Assembly: GCA_048500355.1 (NCBI GenBank)
Contig: JASNYD010000006.1
Location: forward strand, 352,211-416,210
Origin: Kofleriaceae bacterium
GTDB lineage: Bacteria; Myxococcota_A; Polyangia; Haliangiales; Haliangiaceae
DNA: 64,000 nucleotides
Direction of reading: 5' to 3'
Under the pieces are notes generated by a model. That model saw nothing but the letters and a program-made list of their open reading frames with translations. It did not search any database and was not told the DNA's origin. Shown here piece by piece: positions 18,824 to 58,197 of this stretch; positions within the stretch are counted from its first letter, which is position 1; each line of letters opens with the position of its first letter. Made by a program: the position numbers and the translations under genes.

Positions 18824-20709
18824 CCGGCGTGATCCTCATCCTCATCGGCTCGCTCGGCGTCGCGTTCTCGATCCTCATCCTGCGCTCGGATCCGACCCGC
18901 CACGACAACCGCGCCTTCGCCACCCTGGGGCTGCTCGACGCCACCATGGCGCTGTTCCGCGGCACCACCGCGCTCCACGGCGCCGACATCGCCGACCGCA
19001 CCGTGATGTACCCGTGCGCGCTCATGGCCCCGTTCCTGGCCTGGGCCACCCTCGAGTTCGCGTGGTCGTTCCCGTTCAACCGGCCGCTGCCGTGGCGGTG
19101 GCGGGTGCCGATCGCGGTCGCCACCCTGGCCACGCTGGTGCTGCTCGCCAGCGGCCGCTCGATCGAGCGCTCCAACCTGGCCAACGCCCTGTTCTTCGTG
19201 CCGGCGACGATCCTCATGATCGTGTGGCAGATGCGCAACCTGCGCCGGGTCGAGGGCGACCGTCTGGGCGCGCGCCTGGTGGTGGCGGCGCTGATCGTCC
19301 GCTGGATCACCGCCAACATCGTCTACGGGCTGTACAGCCGCATCGACGGCGAGCTGTGGTCGCAGCTCCTCTGGATCGAGACCACCCTCGTCGTCCTGTT
19401 CGGCTTCGTCCTCATCGGCCTGGGCTGCGTCCGCTCCAACCTGTTCACGTTCCGCAGCGCCCTGGGCGGGATCGCGCTGGAGGCGGCGTTCTTCCTCGCC
19501 GGCCTCGGCCTCACCGCCGTCGCCATGGTCGGCGCACTCGAGCTGCGCGAGCGCTTCCCCGGCCTCGGCCTCGCGCTCCTGCTCCTGGCCGCGCTCATCC
19601 CGCTGGCGGTGTTCGCGGTCACCGAGCGCCTGCGCCCGCGGCTCGAGGCCGGCGTCGATCCGCGCAAGGCCCGCAGCCACGAGCTGCTCGACCACGCCAT
19701 GGCCACCGCCACCGGCGACGTCGGCGAGCTGACCGCCACCGTCGAGCGCACCCTGGCCGCGATCAGCGACGGCGGGATCGTGCGCTTCCGCCCCGCCGCC
19801 GCGGCCGGCGACGACGAGGCCGAGCCGACCGCGCCGGCGACGTCGCGGACCGCGGCCCGCCGCGACGGCGCGACCCTGACGGTGCCGGTCCGCACCGGCG
19901 CCACCGTCCACGGCGCGCTCGAGCTCCGCGGCGGCATCCTCGATCGCGAGACCACGCTGGCCAGCGAGCGCCTCGCCGACCGCCTGGCCGCGGCCTGCGA
20001 GCTGCGCCGCCTCGCCGGCGAGCTGGAGGCGGCGAGCCGGCTGGCCGCGCTCGGGGCCTTCGCCGCCGCGATCGCGCACGACATCCGTACCCCGCTGACC
20101 AGCGTGCAGATGAACGTCCAGATGCTGCGGCGCAAGGTGGCGCTGCCCGCCGACGACATGGAGCACTTCGACATCGCGCTCGAGGAGCTGCGCCGCCTCG
20201 ACGCCCACGTCCGCGAGCTGCTCGACTACGCCAAGCCGCTCGCGCTCCACCGCGAGACCGTCGACGCCCGCGAGGTGGCCGAGGGGGCCGCCCGCACCGT
20301 CGCCCCGCTCCTGGCCGGCCGCGGTCAGCGCTTGACCTGCCGCCACGATCCCGACGTGCCGCCGATCGCGGCCGACCCCCACCGGCTGCGCCAGGTGCTG
20401 TGCAACCTGCTCGACAACGCCGCCCACGCCTCGCCGGCCGACGCCGCGATCGAGCTGGTCACGCGCCGCGACGGCGACCGGGTGGCGATCGACGTCGTCG
20501 ATCACGGCGCCGGCGTCGCCGCCGCCGACCTGACGCGCATCTTCGAGCCCTTCTTCACCACCCGCCCCGACGGCACCGGGCTCGGCCTCGCGATCTGCCA
20601 GAAGGTGGTGCGGGGCCACGGCGGCGACCTCGTCGTGCGCTCGCGCCCCGGCGACGGCGCGACCTTCACCGTGCTCCTGCCCACCGCCGCGCTGTCGACG
20701 GCGGCGTAA
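18820..20709 (+). CDS. Membrane sensor histidine kinase (multi-TM sensor + HisKA + HATPase)
   Basis: The GTG start overlaps the response-regulator stop. It has about 7 N-terminal TM helices, an H-box (IAHDIRTPL), an N-box (NLLDNAAHA) and a G-box (GTGLGLAIC). Confidence 0.85.
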
Positions 20710-25481: not shown

Positions 25482-26633
25482 GTGTTGACCGCGAAGCCCT
25501 CGTACCACGTGGTCCTCCTGCCCGGCGACGGCATCGGCGTCGAGGTCACCGCCGACGCCCGCGCCCTGCTCGAGGCGCTGGGCCCGCGCCTCGGCGTCGG
25601 CTTCGCCCTCGACGAGATCCCGTGCGGCGGCCTGTACTACCAGCAGCACGGGCGCCGCGACTGGCCCGAGGGCGCCGAGCAGCGCTGCCACGACGCCGAC
25701 GTCGTCCTGCTGGGCGCAGTGGGCTGGAACGGGCCCGACGGCCAGCCGGTGACGATGAGCAACGGCAAGATGGCGGGCTGGTCGCCGGTGATCGGCAACC
25801 GCGTCCGCCTCGGCCTCTACGCCAACGTCCGCCCCATCCGCCTGCTCAAGGGCGTCAAGCACGGCCTGTCGGGCCGCTTCGCCCAGGTCTGGGAGCCGGG
25901 CATGGTCGACATGATCATGGTCCGCGAGAACACCGAGGGCCTGTACAGCGGCATCGGCGGCGTCGCCGGCGACGCCGCCATCGACACCCGCGTCATCACC
26001 CGGGCCGCCTCGCGGCGCGTGATCCGCAAGGCGTTCGAGCTCAGCCGCGGCCGCGGCACCGGCGCCCCGGTCGACGGCAAGAAGCGCGTCACCTGCGTGG
26101 TCAAGCACAACGTCCTCCACGGCTGCAAGCTGTTCGCCGAGGTCTTCCACGAGGTCGGCAAGGACTTCCCCGACATCGAGAAGGACGTCGCCATCGTCGA
26201 CTCGTTCGCGATGTTCCTCCTGACCCGGCCCGAGCACTACGACGTCGTCGTCACCACCAACATGTTCGGTGACATCCTCACCGACCTGGGCTCGGTGCTG
26301 CAGGGCGGCATGGGGATGGCGGTCGGTTGCAACGTCGGCGACGACCACGCGATGTTCGAGCCCATCCACGGCTCGGCGCCGCCCCTGGCCGGCCGCGACC
26401 TCGCCAACCCGCTGGCGATGCTGCTGGCCACCGCCGAGGCCCTGCTGTGGCTGGGCCGCCGCCGCGGCGACGAGCGGCTGATCAAGGGCGGGCGCGCGAT
26501 CGACGACGCGGTCGCCGCGATCATCGCCCGCGGCAAGCCGCTCACGACGGACCTGGTCGGCGCCGAGCGCGGCGCGCCGCGATCGGTGGTCGCCGCCGCG
26601 GTGCGCGACGAGGCGCTGGCCCGCCTGGCCTGA
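25482..26633 (+). CDS. Isocitrate/isopropylmalate dehydrogenase family protein (3-IPM/tartrate-DH-like)
   Basis: It has the LLPGDGIG substrate loop, [21 protein letters not shown], and the full-length fold. Confidence 0.8.
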
Positions 26634-27098
26634 GGCCGAGGCCGACGCCGAATCCGAGGCCGAGGCCCGGATCCGAGGCCGAATCCGAATCCGAATCCGA
26701 ATCCGAGGCCGAATCCGAATCCGAGGCCGAATCCGAATCCGAGGCCGAATCCGAATCCGAGGCCGAATCCGAATCCGAATCCGAACCCGAGGCCGAATCC
26801 GAACCCGAGGCCGAACCCGAGGCCGAATCCGAATCCGAATCCGAATCCGAGGCCGAATCCGAATCCGAATCCGAGGCCGAATCCGAATCCGAGGCCGAAT
26901 CCGAATCCGAGGCCGAATCCGAATCCGAGACCGAATCCGAGGCCGAACCCGAATCCGAATCCGAGACCGAGCCCGAGGCCGAATCCGAATCCGAGGCCGA
27001 ATCCGAATCCGAGGCCGAACCCGAGGCCGAATCCGAACCCGAGGCCGAACCCGAGGCCGAATCCAAGGCCGAATCCGAATCCGAGGCCGAATCCGAGG
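26634..27098. repeat. Intergenic array of ~77 imperfect hexanucleotide repeats (CCGANN)n
   Basis: The units are GAATCC/GAGGCC/GAACCC/GAGACC with a strict 6-bp period. The array fills the whole gap between two convergent genes. Confidence 0.85.
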
Positions 27099-27109
27099 CC
27101 GGAGGCCGG

Positions 27110-27960
27110 TCAGGGCGTCTCGAGCGGCGGCGCGGGCTCGAGGACGACCGGGACGGCGGGGGTGCCGCGCATGACGCGGGTGACGCCGCCGTCGCGGTAG
27201 CCGGCGCGCGCGGCCACGGGCTCGTCGGCGATGACGCCGGTGACCCGCACCACCTGGCCGACGGCGACGTCCTCGACGTGGAGGACGCCACCCAGCCGCC
27301 AGGACGCCGGCACGCCGAGCGCGGCGAGGCGCGGCTCGGCGCCGGTGACCTCCGGCGTGCCGAGGACGCGGTACTTGACCAGCGGCGGCGCGAGGCGGAT
27401 CACGCCGGTCACGACCACGTCGCCGCCGGGCGCCGCGACGACGAACGGCGCGACCGCGGACGCGCGCAGGAAGATCCCACCGACCCAGCGCACGCCGAGC
27501 TCGGCGGCGACGCTGGTCCCACCGTCCCACGGCCGGCGCACCGGGGCGTGGAGCGGATGCGCCGGCCCGATCGCGACGCTCGCCGTCGGCGCCGGCTGCG
27601 GGCGGCGCTCGACGATCGCGGCGATCGGCTGCTCGGCGCGGACGCGGCGGCGGCGGACGGCCTGCACGCCGGCGGCGCCCAGGGTCACCAGCGAGACCGG
27701 CATCAGGAACGGGATGACGATGCTGCCGCCGGCGAGCAGCGCGGTGATCATCCACATGTCGCGCTCCCCGCCCAGCTTCATGTCCGGGTAGGACATCAGC
27801 TCACGCAGGCCCGCCATCGGCGCGACCATGCCGGCGCCACACTCGACGCAGTCGCGGGTCGGAGGCTGGACCAGCCGACAGCCGAGGCAGCAGTGGCCGT
27901 GGCGCATCGCCGGCGTCGCCTCCTCACCCCTGGCGCCGTCGCGACCCATGCCGCCCGAGG

Positions 27961-27967
<7 letters not shown>
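27110..27967 (-). CDS. Hypothetical membrane protein with N-terminal Cys/His zinc-ribbon-like motif
   Basis: It has HGHCCLGC...CVEC, then a TM helix, then a soluble domain. The start is uncertain (27907-27967). Confidence 0.4.
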
Positions 27968-46639: not shown

Positions 46640-48918
46640 TCAGCGCTTGCGCCGCAGCTTGACGTCGACCTTGTGGCCGTCGCGATCGGGATAGACGCGC
46701 TGGGTGGCGGTCAGGCCGCGGCGGGCGAGGACGAGCGACGTGGTCTCGAAGCCGGGGAGCGCGATCGTCGCCGGCGTCTTGCCGACCACGACGTCGCCGA
46801 TGGTCACCGTCGCGCCCGACGGCCGCGACGTCACCTTCACCTCGAAGACCGGCCGCTCGAGCCGCACCTCGAGCGCGGCCGCCCCCGCCGCGACCTGGCG
46901 GGTGACCGGCTGGTAGCGGTCGCGCCGGAACGTGACCTCGTAGGGCGTGCACGGGCCGTCGTAGGTGAACGGGGTCTCGCCGAGGATCTGGCCGTCGCGC
47001 ACGACCTGCACCGCCTCGGGGCTCGACGACAGCGCCACCGCGCAGGTGCCGGAGGCGGGCGGGGGTGAGGCGCCGGGCGCGATCGGGGGCGGCTCCGGCG
47101 GCGACTCGACCGCTGGCGGCGGGGTCGTGGCCGCGGCCGGCTCCACCGCGCCGCCCGGCGCGCCGGCGCGCGGCGATCCGCCGGGCGCGGCGGGGGCCGA
47201 CGCGCCGCTCGCCGCCGGCGCGGCGCTGGCCGCGGGCGGACGGCCCGCGGCGCCGCCATCACCGCCGCCGCCGCGCGCGGCGATGACGACCATGACCGCC
47301 ACGCCGATCACGATGAGGCCGGAGGTGACCGCGATGACCGGCCAGCGCCGGCGCGCCGCCGGGCCGCCGAGCTGGATCATCTCGGTCATGTCGTCGTCGC
47401 GATCGACGAGCTCGGGCGCCGACCACGCCGGAGCCGCCGATGACGGGTAGGGCCTCGGGTAGTACGGCGCGCCAGCCGCGACCGGCGCCATCGCGGCTGC
47501 GGGCGGCGGCGCCATCGCCGCCATGGGCGGCGGCGCCATCGCCGCCACGGGCGGCGGCGCCATCGACGCCACGGGCGGCGGCGCCATCGCGGCCACGGGC
47601 GGCGGCGCCATCGCCGCCACGGGCGGCGGCGCCATCGCCGCCACGGGCGGCGGCGCCATCGCCGCCATGGGCGGCGGCGCCATCGCCGCCACGGGCGGCG
47701 GCGCCATCGACCATCCCGGCGACGACGCCGGCGGCGGCGGCGACGGCGGGACGACGATCGGCACGGCCCGCGGCGGGAGCGTGGTCGGCAGCGGCTCCGT
47801 CGCGTCCGCGGAGCCGACCTCCGCGACCGCCTCGGGCAGCGCGACGACCACGTCGGTCGGGAGGTCGTCGCCGACGACGGTGACGGTGGGGACGATCGGC
47901 GCGGCCTCCACCGGACCCGACGGGACCGCGCTCATGCCGGCGGGCGCCGCGGTCGGCACCGTCGGGCCGAGGTCGAGCGCGCCCGGCGCGCCGTGCGAGG
48001 TCGACGCCGCCGCGGCGATCGCGTGCATCACCGCGCCGCGCGTCGGCTGGGTCGGACCGGTCTCGTGCTCGACGCCGTGGCGCGGCACCGGCACGCTGTC
48101 GGTGGGCACCCCCGGCGGCGTCCCCGCCGCCACGACCGCCGACGAGGACGCGCCGCGCGTCGGCGTCGACCGGGCCGGCGTCGAGCTCGCGGGCGCCGCC
48201 CCGGTCCCACCTGGACGCGGTCGCGCGGGCGCCGGCATCGCGGCCGGCGCGCCCGCCACCGACGGTGGGGCCGGACCCACGACCGGGATGCCCATGAGGG
48301 TGCGCTGCTGCTCGCGGCGCGCGCGGCCGTCCGCCGTCATCGGGGCCGCGCCGGCGCCCACCGCGGCGCCAGGGACCGGAACGGGGAGCGGCGCCTGCCG
48401 GATCGTCGGCGGCGCCGGCTCGCGCGCGGAGCCGGGCATGCGCACGGTGGCGAGGTCGGGCCGCGCCGCGCCGGCGGGCGCCATCGCCTCGACCGCGCAG
48501 GTCGCCGCCGCGGCGTCGACCGCGCCGCCCTGGGCGACGCCGATCGCGGCCCCCAGCGGCACGAGGTGGCGCGGCACCGCCGGCGGCACCGCCGCCGCGG
48601 CGTGCTCCACCATGTGAGCGAGCAGGCCCTTGCCGCGGGCGTCGAGGCGGAGGTAGCGCACGTCGATCGTCGCGCCGGCCGGCGCGCCGGCCGCCCCCGC
48701 CGTCGCGCCCCCCACGCTCACCTCGGCCTCGCCATCGAGCACCGCCACCCGCGACGCGAGGGTCACCACGACCCGCCCGCGCCCGCTCGCCACGGGCGCA
48801 CCCGTGACCGGGATCGCGGTCAGGCCCTCGGGCCCGGCCAGGGTGCGGAACACCCGGATCAGGTCCTCGACCGTCGCGCACCGGCTGACCAGGCGCCACG
48901 CGGTTCCGTTCGCCACGA
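46640..48918 (-). CDS. Pro/Ala-rich membrane protein with C-terminal PEGA domains and internal (MAPPPVAA)n repeats
   Basis: It has a TM helix (WPVIAVTSGLIVIGVAVMVVIAA) and two C-terminal PEGA-like modules. The start is uncertain (a GTG near 48918 is proposed). The longest ORF reaches 49201 and overlaps the divergent gene. Confidence 0.55.
47483..47710. repeat. In-frame 24-bp tandem repeat (~9.5 copies) encoding MAPPPVAA
   Basis: The unit is GGCGGCGGCGCCATCGCCGCCACG on the top strand and it lies inside the coding sequence. Confidence 0.8.
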
Positions 48919-49088
48919 GGATCGAGTGTAGGCAATTCCGGCGGGTGTAACCAGGCAGAAGCGCAAACCTCGGGTCACGCCCCGTGGCCGGCGGTTGACG
49001 CTCGCGCCGCCGGCGGCCCGGAGGCGTGGGGAAGGTCCACAACCGGTCCGGCCTTCGCCTGGCACCCACCTTGCGAGGTCCCCCGACC

Positions 49089-49868
49089 ATGCGGACCCGA
49101 ACCATCGTCGCCTCGCTCACCCTGTGTGCCCTCCCCCTCCTGGCCGGCGCCCGCGGCGACGGGTGCGCGGCGAGCTCGCGCTCGCCCGCCCCCGACGTCA
49201 CCGGCTGGTGGGACGTGACCTACGACGACGCCCTGAGCGTCGAGATCATCGTGGGCGGCTCGGTGTACACCGCCGAGACCGGCGCCCAGGGCGGCGCGAT
49301 CACGATCACCCACCAGGGGCGCCCGCTCACGTTCGACCTCGCCTGCGCGCGGCCCGAGGTCGTGTGCCCGAGCGAGGCCTGGCCGCGCGCGATCTTCGCC
49401 GAGCAGCGCGACGCCGGCTTCGAGCACCGCATGTACGTCACGCTGCCGGTGCAGACCTGCGCCGGCGCCCGGCGCGCCCCGGCGCCCGGCACCTGCGGGG
49501 CCGGCACCGCCAACCCCGAGTGCGACGACGTGTGCGACGGCGAGCTCGTCTCCCGCGACGAGGAGCGCTTCGGCGTGATCGGCGAGAGCGGACGGACGTT
49601 CCGCCTCTACCTCGGCGCCGGCGTCGCCACCAACGGCATCAACTGCGCGCTGCTCGGCTGGTCGGTCGCCGACGCCGAGCTCGACACCGTCGGCAGCGCC
49701 GCCGGCGGCGACTGGGAGGCGGTGGCGATGGACGCCGGCATGGTCACCGTCGGCTACTCCGGCGGCTGCCTGTGGGCCGGCGATCCGGACCTGGACGGCG
49801 AGCTCGAGGCCCTGATCCTGGGCGCCACCGTCAAGCTCACGACCGGCTTCACCGCCGATCGGCGCTAG
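49089..49868 (+). CDS. Hypothetical secreted Cys-rich protein
   Basis: It has a signal peptide and at least 10 Cys residues. Confidence 0.5.
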   Translation: MRTRTIVASLTLCALPLLAGARGDGCAASSRSPAPDVTGWWDVTYDDALSVEIIVGGSVYTAETGAQGGAITITHQGRPLTFDLACARPEVVCPSEAWPRAIFAEQRDAGFEHRMYVTLPVQTCAGARRAPAPGTCGAGTANPECDDVCDGELVSRDEERFGVIGESGRTFRLYLGAGVATNGINCALLGWSVADAELDTVGSAAGGDWEAVAMDAGMVTVGYSGGCLWAGDPDLDGELEALILGATVKLTTGFTADRR

Positions 49869-50309: not shown

Positions 50310-51104
50310 ATGAGCCGCACCCGCTGGTGGCTGATCGGCGTGATCGCGCTCGCGACCGTGGCGAGCGGCGTCCTGGTCGGCCTGCTGGTCGTCAAGCGCA
50401 TCGAGTCCGGGCAGTGGCAGATGATCTCGAGCGCGGATCTGGTGGAGGTGAAGGCCCGCCTCACCGGCCCGGTGCCGCCGCGGCCCAGCCGCGTCATCTA
50501 CCTGGCGCGCGAGCCGCTGACGTTCACGCCGGGCGTGGACGACGCCGCGCGCGGCCAGTCGAGCGTGGTCGCGGCCAAGGCCGGCAAGCCGATCAAGGTG
50601 CCGGGGTGGAAGGGGACCGCCAAGGGCTGGGGCCAGGTGGTCACCTGCGTCGAGAAGCTGTTCGCGCCGTTCGACGTCGTGGTGACCGACCAGCGCCCCA
50701 CCGGCGACGACTTCGTCCTGGTCGCGGTCGGCGGGCGGCCCGGCGACGTCGGCGAGACCAACAAGCGCGTGGGCGGCCTGGCGCCGTTCTCGGGGGGCGT
50801 GATCCCGCGCGCGGTCGTGTTCGTGTTCTCGACGCAGCTCGGCAACCAGGTGACCCCGGTGTGCGAGACCATCGGCATGGAGGTCGCGCACGCCTACGGC
50901 CTCGATCACGGCTACCTGTGCAAGGACGTGATGACCTACCTCAAGCCGTGCGGGGCCAAGTCGTTCGTCGACCAGGACGTGCCGTGCGGCGAGACCAAGA
51001 AGCGGCCGTGCATGGGCGGCGCCCCCACCCAGAACTCGTACCGGCGGCTGCTCGAGATCCTGGGCCCGGCGCGGCCGGTCCCGGTGGCGGGCCCCGGGCG
51101 CTGA
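50310..51104 (+). CDS. Membrane-anchored hypothetical protein with degenerate metzincin-like motif
   Basis: It has an N-terminal TM helix. [12 protein letters not shown] resembles HExxHxxGxxH with the first His replaced by Met. Confidence 0.45.
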
Positions 51105-51152
51105 CCGACGACGCTGACCGACGACGCCGACCGAAGACGAGCGCCCGGTCAG

Positions 51153-51593
51153 ATCCGGGCTCGGGTTCGGGCTCGGGGCTGCATGACCCGCTCACCCTGA
51201 GCGGAGCCCCGAAGGGGCGGAGTCGAAGGGGCTCGGGTTCGGATTCGGATTCGGGTTCGGATTCGGGTTCGGGTTCGGGTTCGGGTTCGGATTCGGGTTC
51301 GGGTTCGGATTCGGGTTCGGATTCGGGTTCGGGTTCGGGGCTGCATGACCCGCTCACCCTGAGCGGAGCCCCGAAGGGGCGGAGTCGAAGGGGCTCGGGG
51401 CTGCATGACCCGCTCACCCTGAGCGGAGCCCCGAAGGGGCGGAGTCGAAGGGGCTCGGGGCTGCATGACCCGCTCACCCTGAGCGGAGCCCCGAAGGGGC
51501 GGAGTCGAAGGGGCTCGGGGCTGCATGACCCGCTCACCCTGAGCGGAGCCCCGAAGGGGCGGAGTCGAAGGGGCTCGGATCCGGAGCCGGGCT
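51153..51593. repeat. Composite intergenic repeat: five copies of a 60-bp double-hairpin unit plus hexanucleotide (NNTCGG)n arrays
   Basis: The 60-bp unit GGCTGCATGACCCGCTCACCCTGAGCGGAGCCCCGAAGGGGCGGAGTCGAAGGGGCTCGG lies at 51177-51236 and in four perfect tandem copies at 51339-51578. The copies are separated and flanked by 6-bp repeats that are the reverse complement of the 26634 family. Confidence 0.85.
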
Positions 51594-52436
51594 TCAGAAC
51601 GAGCCGCCGAGGACGACGGTGGCGCCGCCGGCCGCGGGCACGACGGCGAGCGACGGCTCGCGACCGCGGTCGAAGGTCAGGTAGCGGACGACGCCACCGG
51701 CGAGGAGCGCGCCGCCGACGCCGGCGACGATCACCGACGTCAGCCGCAGCGAGCGGGCGCGATCCTCGGCCGCGAGGTAGGCGTCGTAGCTCGTCCCCGC
51801 GCACACCGGATCACCGCACTGGGCGGCGCGCGCGCGGGTGTAGAGCACGATCGCCGCGACCTCGGCGACGACGCCGGCGCCCACCAGCGACATGCCGACG
51901 ACGTCGCGATGGAAGCGGCGGGCCCCGGCGTCCGCTGGCGGCATGGTGATCGCGCCGCCCGCGGCCGGACCCCGGACGTCGTCACCGCCCGGCGCGGAGG
52001 CGCCGTCACCGCCGCCGGCGCGTGCGTGCTCGGCGTCGAGGATCGCCTGGCAGGCGTCGACCTCGGCCTGCGCCGCCTCCGCCGCCCTGGGCCCCGGCTT
52101 GCTCTCGAGGAAGCGGGTGAAGTGCTCGATCGCGAGCCGGCAGGCCTTGCGCTCGGCGTGGAGGCGACCGATGACGTAGAGCAGGTCGGGGCGGCCGGTC
52201 TCGGCGTGCGCGGCCACGAACTCGCGCAGCGCGGTGTCGAGGTCGCCGGCCTCGTAGGCGGCGGTGGCGGCGGCCTCGCGGTCGGCCGGCTGGGCGCGCG
52301 CCGGCGTGGCGGAGCTCGCGAGCGCGGCCGTCAGGACGGTCGCCGCGACGACCGCGACCCCCGCGCGCGGCGTGGCCGGATCGTCGACGCGCGGCGCGAC
52401 GGCGGGCGGTGAGCGGCGAGCGACCGGGCGGGACAT
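51594..52436 (-). CDS. Hypothetical secreted/membrane protein
   Basis: It has a signal-like N-terminus and a C-terminal TM helix. The start was chosen at the Met that avoids overlap with the upstream kinase. Confidence 0.4.
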
Positions 52437-57323: not shown

Positions 57324-57639
57324 GCGCGGCGGCGAGCCCCGCGCGCCGCTCGGCCCCGCTACCACCGTGGTGGCGAGCGAGAGAGACGGCCCTTCGACAC
57401 GCCCTCGCTGGCGCGCGGGCGGCTCCCGGCGAACGGCGCCGGCAAGCACTCGACATCACTCGCGCGACGGCCGCGGCTTGTCGGCCTTCGACACGCCCTC
57501 GCTGACGCTCGGGCGGCTCAGGCCGACCGGATAGTGGGCTCGCCGTTCGTTTCCCGCAGTCTCCGACCGCGGTCGGTGAAGAGCTCAGGGCGACCGGGGG
57601 CGAAATGGGTCCGTCCTTGCTCGATGAGACCCCGGATCC

Positions 57640-58080
<441 letters not shown>

Positions 58081-58197
58081 GGAGGCGGGCGCGGCGCCTG
58101 GACCCGACACGGTGGAGGCGGCACGGTGGAGGCGGACTCATTCGGCCGCGGTTGCTTCGCGCTATGCCGCGCCGCGTCACCACACTATAGTCGGGGC

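Follow-up and report, generated by a model that had tools for sequence, protein, structure and literature searches.

The 64,000-nt stretch analysed here, called the window (contig JASNYD010000006.1 of a Kofleriaceae bacterium, G+C about 76%), carries at 51153-51593 five identical copies of a 60-nt unit embedded in a hexanucleotide array between two convergent genes. We consider it probable that this locus is a copy of a widespread palindrome, resembling repetitive extragenic palindromic (REP) sequences and REP doublets forming hairpins (REPINs), which lies in a fast-evolving microsatellite and was amplified there in tandem, and that it is selfish or neutral DNA and not a dedicated regulator.

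Five perfect copies of a 60-nt unit fill a convergent spacer

The 489-nt spacer between the convergent genes is entirely taken up by repeats, arranged as follows.

50310-51104, + strand: gene, G+C at third codon positions (GC3) 0.99, convergent with the gene at 51594
51101-51139, + strand: 13-nt direct repeats (CTGACCGACGACG twice, then the variant CCGACCGAAGACG), starting within the stop codon of gene 50310-51104
51152-51176, + strand: short left hexamer run, GATCCG GGCTCG GGTTCG GGCTCG G, whose last bases are the direct repeat GGGCTCGG, found again at the end of every 60-mer
51177-51236, + strand: 60-mer copy 1, an exact copy, matching covariance model R1 (see below) with 64.7 bits at 51190-51235
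51237-51338, + strand: hexanucleotide microsatellite of 17-18 units (GTTCGG x11, ATTCGG x6) between the two 60-mer blocks
51339-51578, + strand: four perfect tandem 60-mers, with R1 matches at 51352, 51412, 51472 and 51532; right edge found in contigs L252-L254
51579-51593, + strand: degenerate hexamers ATCCGG AGCCGG GCT, reaching the stop codon of the convergent gene
51594-52436/52454, - strand: convergent partner gene, its stop codon at the right end of the repeats

The 60-mer GGCTGCATGACCCGCTCACCCTGAGCGGAGCCCCGAAGGGGCGGAGTCGAAGGGGCTCGG (GGCTGCATGACC...GGGGCTCGG) occurs in exactly five copies on the + strand, starting at 51177, 51339, 51399, 51459 and 51519, with 0 mismatches, when 0 copies are expected in shuffled sequence. 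Tandem Repeats Finder reports a period of 60 (4.1 copies, 99% match) and a separate period-6 array at 51229-51339. An earlier note, made from the letters alone, had described one plus four tandem 60-mers, the hexamer array, two convergent genes and two stem-loops per copy; all of this stands, the genes ending at 51104 and 51594 and both hairpins (CCGCTCA-ccc-TGAGCGG and GCCCC-gaa-GGGGC) being present in all five copies, and folding adds a small third one (GAGUC/GGCUC).

No frame across 51153-51593 exceeds a GC3 of 0.74, against 0.99 in the + strand gene, so the segment is non-coding; a coding-repeat reading was rejected on this ground and because the arrays shift the frame. A clustered regularly interspaced short palindromic repeat (CRISPR) array does not fit either, as the units abut directly or have hexamers between them.

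Short-read assemblies from other samples match the left edge of the array (L001-L006) or its right edge (L252-L254), with flanking genes identical to those of the window, and break within the repeats. The locus is present in the samples ERZ27309506-8, SRR9305633, SRR11593520 and SRR21762700. Contigs built with k=141 run one full unit in from the left and two full units from the right; it follows from these independent contigs, which enter the repeats from both edges, that the array is real, with a minimum of three tandem copies. An assembly artefact was thus rejected, both edges and one to two or more units recurring in independent assemblies, while the tandem copy number of four comes from the present assembly alone. 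One contig (L006 1531-1640, ERZ27309508) leaves the hexamer array after 9-10 units and runs into sequence that is not in the window (GCAAAGCGGGGCCGGGCAGGTCGGGCTCGG...), probably where a different hexamer array of the genome has been joined on; such a join would imply that the genome has further arrays.

The unit is a truncated member of a palindromic family

The unit begins with a 10-nt flank foreign to the family (GGCTGCATGA), followed by a left arm (CCGCTCACCCT), GAGC-GGA, the inner hairpin GCCCC-GAA-GGGGC, GGA-GTCGA and AGGG; at its right end the hexamer GCTCGG stands where the right outer arm would be. An exact scan with the 34-nt core (CCCT-GAGC-GGA-GCCCC-GAA-GGGGC-GGA-GTCGA-AGGG), covering one genome per species in GTDB, found it at four non-orthologous loci in three other metagenome-assembled genomes (MAGs) of Kofleriaceae or deltaproteobacteria, namely PRO4 (L007, L008) and two Kofleriaceae (L009, L010). 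The earlier note had thought of a family like REP sequences or miniature inverted-repeat transposable elements (MITEs), to be looked for in related genomes; the exact core in these three MAGs, together with the superfamily beyond them, bears this out.

At L007 the member reads GTTCGCCCT-GAGC-GGA-GCCCC-GAA-GGGGC-GGA-GTCGA-AGGGCG and lies beside a (CCGATC/CCGAAC)n array, on the other side of which a second, inverted copy has the inner hairpin GCGCC-GGA-GGCGC. The PRO4 locus L008 shares 50 of 60 nt with the window unit, as a single copy 3' of an unrelated gene, and enters a (GCTCGG)n array via the junction AGGGGCTCGG. Two copies of about 39 nt stand in tandem at L009, without hexamers. The fourth member (GTTCGTCCT...AGGACGAA; L010 5493-5538, SMAG_U15526), with an outer stem altered on both sides, is located in frame within tatB, in its hypervariable linker and directly upstream of tatC. 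Outer stems thus show compensatory change (GTTCGCCCT/AGGGCG versus GTTCGTCCT/AGGACGAA).

The architecture common to the family comprises an outer stem (e.g. GTTCGCCCT/AGGGCGAAC), a purine-rich loop in which GAGC-GRA faces GGA-GTCGA, and a variable inner hairpin; canonical copies fold in this way, with a 7x8 internal loop (GAGCGGA opposite GGAGTCGA). Hairpin 1 of the window unit is an alternative pairing, possible only in the subfamily with a CCGYTC arm, in which the left arm CCGCTCA pairs with TGAGCGG, a piece of the conserved loop. The window unit folds unlike canonical copies, with hairpin 1 dominating, because hexamers have replaced the right arm. Exceptional thermodynamic stability of the 60-mer is not supported, since shuffled versions reach a comparable folding energy (RNA z -0.74, DNA z -1.7). 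The composite element seen by the earlier note holds in part: hexamers and unit are indeed entangled, with the junction AGGGGCTCGG recurring at L008, whereas the conserved entity is the palindromic family element and not the 'double-hairpin unit'.

The core frame CCTGAGC...GTCGAAGG occurs a further, sixth time in the window (minus strand, 57485-57522; 0.01 expected), beside a second hexamer array at 57.6 kb. Three elements are found there.

57388-57434, - strand: element c, GTTCGCCGG-GAGC-CGCCCGCGCGCCAGCGAGGGCG-T-GTCGA-AGGGCCG, with the same frame as element b
57479-57528, - strand: element b, outer stem GGTCGGCCT/AGGCCGAC, GAGC, inner hairpin CGCCC...GGGCG, GTCGA
57538-57595, - strand: element a, GGTCGCCCTGAGC-TCTTCACCGACCGCGGTCGGAGA...GGGAAACGAACGGCGAGC, forming with b a dispersed repeat of about 130 nt

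Element b scores 16.5 bits with R1 (E 0.02), has a DNA fold z of -3.4 and a 92% identical copy in L008. The a+b composite (57468-57597, - strand) has 92% identical copies at both ends of the same PRO4 contig (1-132 and 6830-6915), again by a hexamer array, and represents a second dispersed repeat type based on the CCTGAGC motif.

A superfamily that crosses phyla

A metagenome scan with the pattern CCTGAGCGRA-N11-15-GGAGTCGAAGG, in which the inner segment is unconstrained, yielded at least 128 matches at no fewer than 120 loci, with at least 82 distinct inner segments. Among the matches listed, 55% of the inner segments form four or more perfect terminal pairs, as against 1.4% of shuffles; this free-segment comparison is the unbiased test, the inner helix of alignment A2 having been pre-selected for pairing. 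Inner stems differ widely (GGCGC/GCGCC, GCACC/GGTGC, GCAAC/GTTGC, AGAGCC/GGCTCT and others), and 25 of 45 inner loops among the matches listed are GNA triloops (GAA 11, GTA 6, GCA 5, GGA 3). The flanks are conserved though the pattern did not set them, with tGTCAT directly before CCT... and AYC directly after ...AGG, and the pair beside CCT/AGG (6-41 in the alignment) covaries (UA 20, CG 6, UG 2, unpaired 0).

Covariance model R1 detects 158 copies in 100 metagenome loci among the matches listed, often clustered. Adjacent pairs within 120 nt display a fixed polarity, 14 being head-to-head and 2 tail-to-tail (+- 14 versus -+ 2). In L225 and L231 the entire doublet is a long inverted repeat ending TGTCAT...ATGACA; inverted doublets are also found in Sphingobium (L131) and in L011, and the inverted arms measure about 45-55 nt. 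Tandem runs of family members occur elsewhere (L009, L132, L241, L247). Orientation relative to genes is near random, with 52 same and 35 opposite for the upstream gene and 41 same and 44 opposite for the downstream one, and the open reading frames (ORFs) that lie between inverted copies belong to ordinary genes.

On plasmids, a BLAST search of PLSDB located the family at 274 places in 54 replicons, all unannotated, in Sphingobium megaplasmids (up to 22 places each), Moraxella osloensis, Sinorhizobium and Comamonas; one inverted doublet in Sphingobium stands just after htpG. Viral contigs gave no match to the full canonical arms, and were then covered with the pattern CCTGAGC-N0-30-GTCGAAGG, for which the following figures hold among the matches listed. 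The gap lengths show a sharp peak at 2 nt (32) and 3 nt (14), versus about 3 at any other length, and the minimal form ...CCGTTCGCCCT-GAGC-YT-GTCGA-AGGGCGAACGG... is found in contigs of 31-71% G+C. The GAGC-GRA/GGA-GTCGA loop was seen in Myxococcota, acidobacteria-like soil contigs, Sphingomonadaceae and Moraxella.

Neither the window nor 34 member-bearing loci reached a gathering threshold in Rfam 15, with only noise at E up to 10, so that the Rfam scan of the unit envisaged earlier ended without a catalogued match. The family is not catalogued in Rfam 15; it may have been described elsewhere, and full-text literature searches (motif strings; myxobacterial REPs and hexamer arrays) returned nothing relevant. 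For the conserved loop, the hammerhead, group II domain V, K-turn and T-loop were considered by eye and dropped, as the consensus positions do not fit.

Hexamer arrays and their companions

The hexamer repeat can be written as (NNTCGG)n or, for the opposite strand, as (CCGANN)n. Two further arrays lie in the window.

57638-58065, + strand: second array, (CCGAGC/CCGAAC/CCGACT/CCGACG)n, about 71 units, directly adjoining elements a-c
26632-27108, + strand: third array, (CCGAAT/CCGAGG/CCGAAC)n, about 79 units, filling the spacer of the convergent genes 25482-26633 (+) and 27110-27967 (-)

The second has a TauE-family gene on one side and a methylmalonyl-CoA-mutase-family gene on the other, and the orientation of the three window arrays relative to genes is not uniform. 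With 18, about 71 and about 79 units of a size within 1-11 nt, a length far beyond chance and, at the 51-kb site, variation between close strains, they have the properties of long simple sequence repeats (SSRs). Arrays of at least six units were present only in the window lineage and in PRO4, and none was found in the other ~250 loci scanned (~1.8 Mb). A family element is located within about 40 nt of four of the five arrays (window 51 kb, window 57 kb, L007 on both sides and inverted, L008 on both sides).

The motif GATCCGG, at 51152 and again at 51578, brackets the whole hexamer/60-mer composite, and a hexamer containing GGATCC also starts other arrays (26667-26680; 57632-57640; L008 ~6545). 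The flanking GATCCGG could be a target-site duplication, a junction signature or a low-complexity coincidence.

In six arrays from at least three genomes, each with its own mix of units, the CCGA core is nearly invariant (0-0.4 bit) and positions 5-6 are variable (0.2-1.6 bit). This pattern, along with the confinement of the arrays to the window lineage and PRO4 among the loci scanned, could be read as the mark of a platform on which (CCGANN)n arrays and hairpins are bound by a lineage-specific DNA- or RNA-binding protein that reads CCGA/TCGG every 6 nt, for nucleoid organisation or as a sponge. We regard such a platform as very unlikely, for it is drawn purely from the conservation pattern and no candidate protein is known; moreover, array positions are not conserved, strains that are 98% identical differ in their arrays, and a repeat every 6 bp does not keep step with the turns of the DNA helix.

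The array is recent and not needed by the flanking genes

The 264-aa neighbouring protein has homologues that carry the labels Kofleriaceae, Myxococcota or Haliangiaceae g__UBA2376; the source is a Kofleriaceae-type myxobacterium so far met only in metagenomes. A sister strain, in which this protein is 98% identical, was recovered from four further samples, among them ERZ3604704 and SRR17055912/15. At the same site it carries a hexamer array with another mix of units (CGTCGG, AGTCGG, GCTCGG, GTTCGG), and no 60-mer within the first 130 nt of the spacer, which is all that its contigs reach. The 13-nt repeat is strain-variable as well, since the sister strain (L255) has three full, perfect copies of it.

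In three relatives with 69-74% protein identity, synteny is kept: the 264-aa gene converges on a TPR gene, followed by kinase, PLP decarboxylase, TauE and mutase genes. The convergent stops are 7, 1 and 0 nt apart, and about 57 kb of these loci contain neither arrays nor family members. The flanking genes thus do not need the array, because their orthologues abut without it. We conclude that the array at 51 kb is recent and dispensable.

These comparisons bear on the view that the array has been exapted to stop transcription in both directions, or to protect mRNA 3' ends, for the two convergent genes. RNA polymerase would pause at the GC-rich hairpins, or exonucleases would be held up by them, and the C-rich hexamer strand would serve as a Rho-loading (rut-like) tract. 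The array does lie exactly between two stop codons, stable hairpins form on both strands, and the CCGANN strand, to judge from its letters, has more C than G and is unable to pair with itself; enterobacterial REP elements, for their part, stabilise upstream mRNA. This role is nevertheless unlikely. The orthologous pairs of the three relatives lack the element, no hairpin-plus-U terminator exists (0 intrinsic terminators, defined as a GC-rich hairpin followed by a U tract, at 50900-51800 on both strands), the three window arrays differ in orientation relative to genes, the superfamily has no strong strand bias, and the folding energy of the unit is unexceptional. The attenuator or terminator array put forward in the earlier note is not sustained on these grounds, and termination or stabilisation could at most be a secondary effect of the array. 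No sigma-70 promoter was found there either.

A comparable replacement concerns the second locus. The window segment 57324-58200 consists of 877 nt of palindromic repeats and hexamers where relatives have two small genes between the TauE-family and MM_CoA_mutase genes (119/172 aa and 130/191 aa; L259 18531-19666, L264 14614-15782), of which tblastn found no trace in the window. Just upstream of the mutase start, the sequence CGCTATGCCGCGCCGCGTCACC.CA.TATAGT (58160-58195) is kept in a genus-level relative (L259 ~19620-19660) and is probably a promoter or another regulatory site.

A model for the origin of the array

We propose three steps, of which the first is the most firmly grounded. An (NNTCGG)n microsatellite expanded, in the window lineage, into a convergent spacer formerly of about zero length. 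One dispersed REP/REPIN-like copy, recognisable by its sequence, would then have come into the hexamer array; the resident copy lacks its right outer arm, with the hexamer GCTCGG in its place. Finally, unequal recombination or replication slippage between the flanking GGGCTCGG repeats would have amplified a block of 60 nt, or ten hexamer phases, in which the element is preceded by 10 nt of private flank and followed by one hexamer. The presumed outcome is four tandem copies and one more 102 nt away, all still identical.

Two observations carry the last step. The 10-nt GGCTGCATGA lies left of the element in all five copies and does not belong to the family (L008 has GAAGGAGA there), so the five copies are segmental duplications of one resident copy and not five insertions. 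Likewise, GGGCTCGG is located directly before copy 1 and at the end of every copy, 60 nt apart, which equals the period (10 x 6); exchange or slippage between flanking hexamers accounts for the period of 60, for the unit ends grading into hexamers and for the perfect identity. The earlier suggestion of a recent expansion, made from that identity, is strengthened by the shared GGCTGCATGA flank and by the different array of the sister strain. The hairpins could form in single-stranded DNA or at the 3' ends of both convergent transcripts, and if they influence termination or mRNA stability, this would be a side effect and not the reason for the structure.

Several points weigh against this reading. 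The family is sparse in the 64-kb window, with just two loci. No transposase or other mobilising gene was found in the loci examined; a six-frame motif search for REP-associated tyrosine transposases (RAYTs; PxHxH...YxxxNP) over ~1.8 Mb of loci gave 0 matches, a weak test on fragments. We infer that the family is mobile from its dispersed, non-orthologous distribution only. No pair of empty and filled sites was obtained from tatB, the closest homologues being about 70-79% identical with a hypervariable linker. The orientation statistics depend on a crude ORF caller. The invariance of the CCGA core, with variable positions 5-6, is not predicted by slippage, and some constraint or mechanism is missing from the model. 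Furthermore, the truncated junction AGGGGCTCGG is identical at the non-orthologous PRO4 locus L008; independent truncation explains this poorly, which hints that element and hexamers may move or arise together.

Pushed further, that hint would make array and hairpin one composite mobile unit, in which the hexamer arrays are produced by the mobilisation machinery of the element itself, as target-site footprints or by templated addition. Beyond the junction common to two genomes and the element within about 40 nt of most arrays, this idea can draw on the 7-mer GGAGTCG, which is common to the element motif and to the AGTCGG hexamers of the sister strain, and on the GATCCGG on both sides of the whole composite. 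It is very unlikely, as the 26.6-kb array has no element, elements occur without arrays in L009, L010 and all non-Kofleriaceae relatives of the family, and no enzyme has been identified. A broader conjecture, doubtful though less so, sees in the GAGC-GRA/GGA-GTCGA hairpin an uncatalogued, cross-phylum REPIN-like superfamily whose conserved loop and GNA-triloop mini-hairpins would be read as single-stranded DNA by a widely shared putative enzyme. In the Kofleriaceae lineage of the window, the same machinery or its footprints would make the (CCGANN)n arrays, hairpin and hexamers both issuing from a single process.

Relation to known repeat systems

The preferred reading, a REP/REPIN-like palindrome amplified within a microsatellite, calls for comparison with the REP, bacterial interspersed mosaic element (BIME) and REPIN elements of E. 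coli and Pseudomonas, which are mobilised by RAYT (Y1, IS200-like) transposases (PMC3116915, PMC3337134). The likeness is manifold: short imperfect palindromes, mostly extragenic and often just past stop codons; single copies, clusters and inverted doublets of fixed polarity, as seen for the superfamily in other genomes; a conserved short motif with covarying stems; and an orientation independent of flanking genes. As for copies per replicon or genome, Sphingobium megaplasmids have up to 22 places, against two loci in the 64-kb window and one or two exact-core loci in each related MAG. Palindromes with compensatory stem changes characterise the family, whereas the window copy itself has lost its outer stem, and inverted doublets occur in other genomes, whereas the window copies are direct. 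There are other differences. The 5' GTAG is absent, the termini in alignment A2 being TGTCAT, GTTCGC or GCTCAC, and the conserved part is the internal loop GAGC-GRA/GGA-GTCGA. This loop sequence is common to several phyla, while REP sequences are normally lineage-specific; the window holds a direct tandem array of a truncated half-element and not a doublet; and the motif search on fragments, weak as it is, found no RAYT. As for MITEs, no target-site duplication is definable and no parent insertion sequence was seen, the GATCCGG flanks lying in a low-complexity context.

Bacteria that are free-living and have large genomes can carry long SSRs with units of 5-11 nt (Mrazek et al. 2007, as reported in PMC4679880), and Beggiatoaceae contain intergenic TAACTGA arrays (PMC4679880). 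The hexamers share with both the long head-to-tail intergenic arrays, the sporadic phylogenetic spread and the rapid change between close strains. They differ in that the window unit is degenerate, four of its positions forming an invariant core and the other two being free, and in that the window arrays reach 430-480 bp, sit at gene 3' ends and accompany a palindromic family.

C-G-closed GNA triloops, d(GCGNAGC)/CCGAAGG, are classic extra-stable DNA mini-hairpins, and the ssiA priming signal has CCGAAGG as its mini-hairpin (PMC13037366). This 7-mer is also part of the window unit, and the inner hairpins of the family are C-G-closed, more than half of those among the matches listed (25 of 45) with GNA loops. 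This hints that the elements may matter as single-stranded DNA; the cited work treats a structural motif and not a repeat family, and action of the elements as single strands is our extrapolation.

The consensus arms of the Rfam family RF02901 (AaHKsRNA41), GCUGAgCUUGcCGAAG ... UUCGgCAAGcUCAgC, resemble the minimal doublet of our family (L011 230-302). The score of 20 bits is below the Rfam standard, the gathering score being 97, and the window unit gives no match. The Aggregatibacter small RNA AaHKsRNA41 may itself be a REPIN-like repeat.

Rickettsia palindromic elements are in-gene insertions. The L010 member is similar to them in lying in frame within the variable linker of tatB with the ORF unbroken; it differs in that insertion boundaries in tatB are not definable, and the window copies are intergenic.

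Other features of the window

The searches for tRNA and tmRNA genes returned none. The long minus-strand ORF 46640-49201 contains a 24-nt tandem repeat (9.5 copies, 94% match) at 47483-47709, which is presumably coding.

Implications

The locus can be removed from the candidates for a new structured regulator: its tandem copies would represent local duplication of selfish DNA, seeded by microhomology in a microsatellite. The work also draws attention to a palindromic superfamily, absent from Rfam, whose loop is conserved from myxobacteria to Sphingobium and Moraxella. Members can lie in frame within genes, as in tatB, and the superfamily probably yields many spurious 'hypothetical proteins' in metagenomes. 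Such repeats break short-read assemblies, every short-read contig having ended within them. In Kofleriaceae-type genomes, spacers of 0-7 nt, and even two small genes, can be replaced between close strains by hexamer arrays of about 0.5-0.9 kb, a genome dynamics that is unusual for bacteria.

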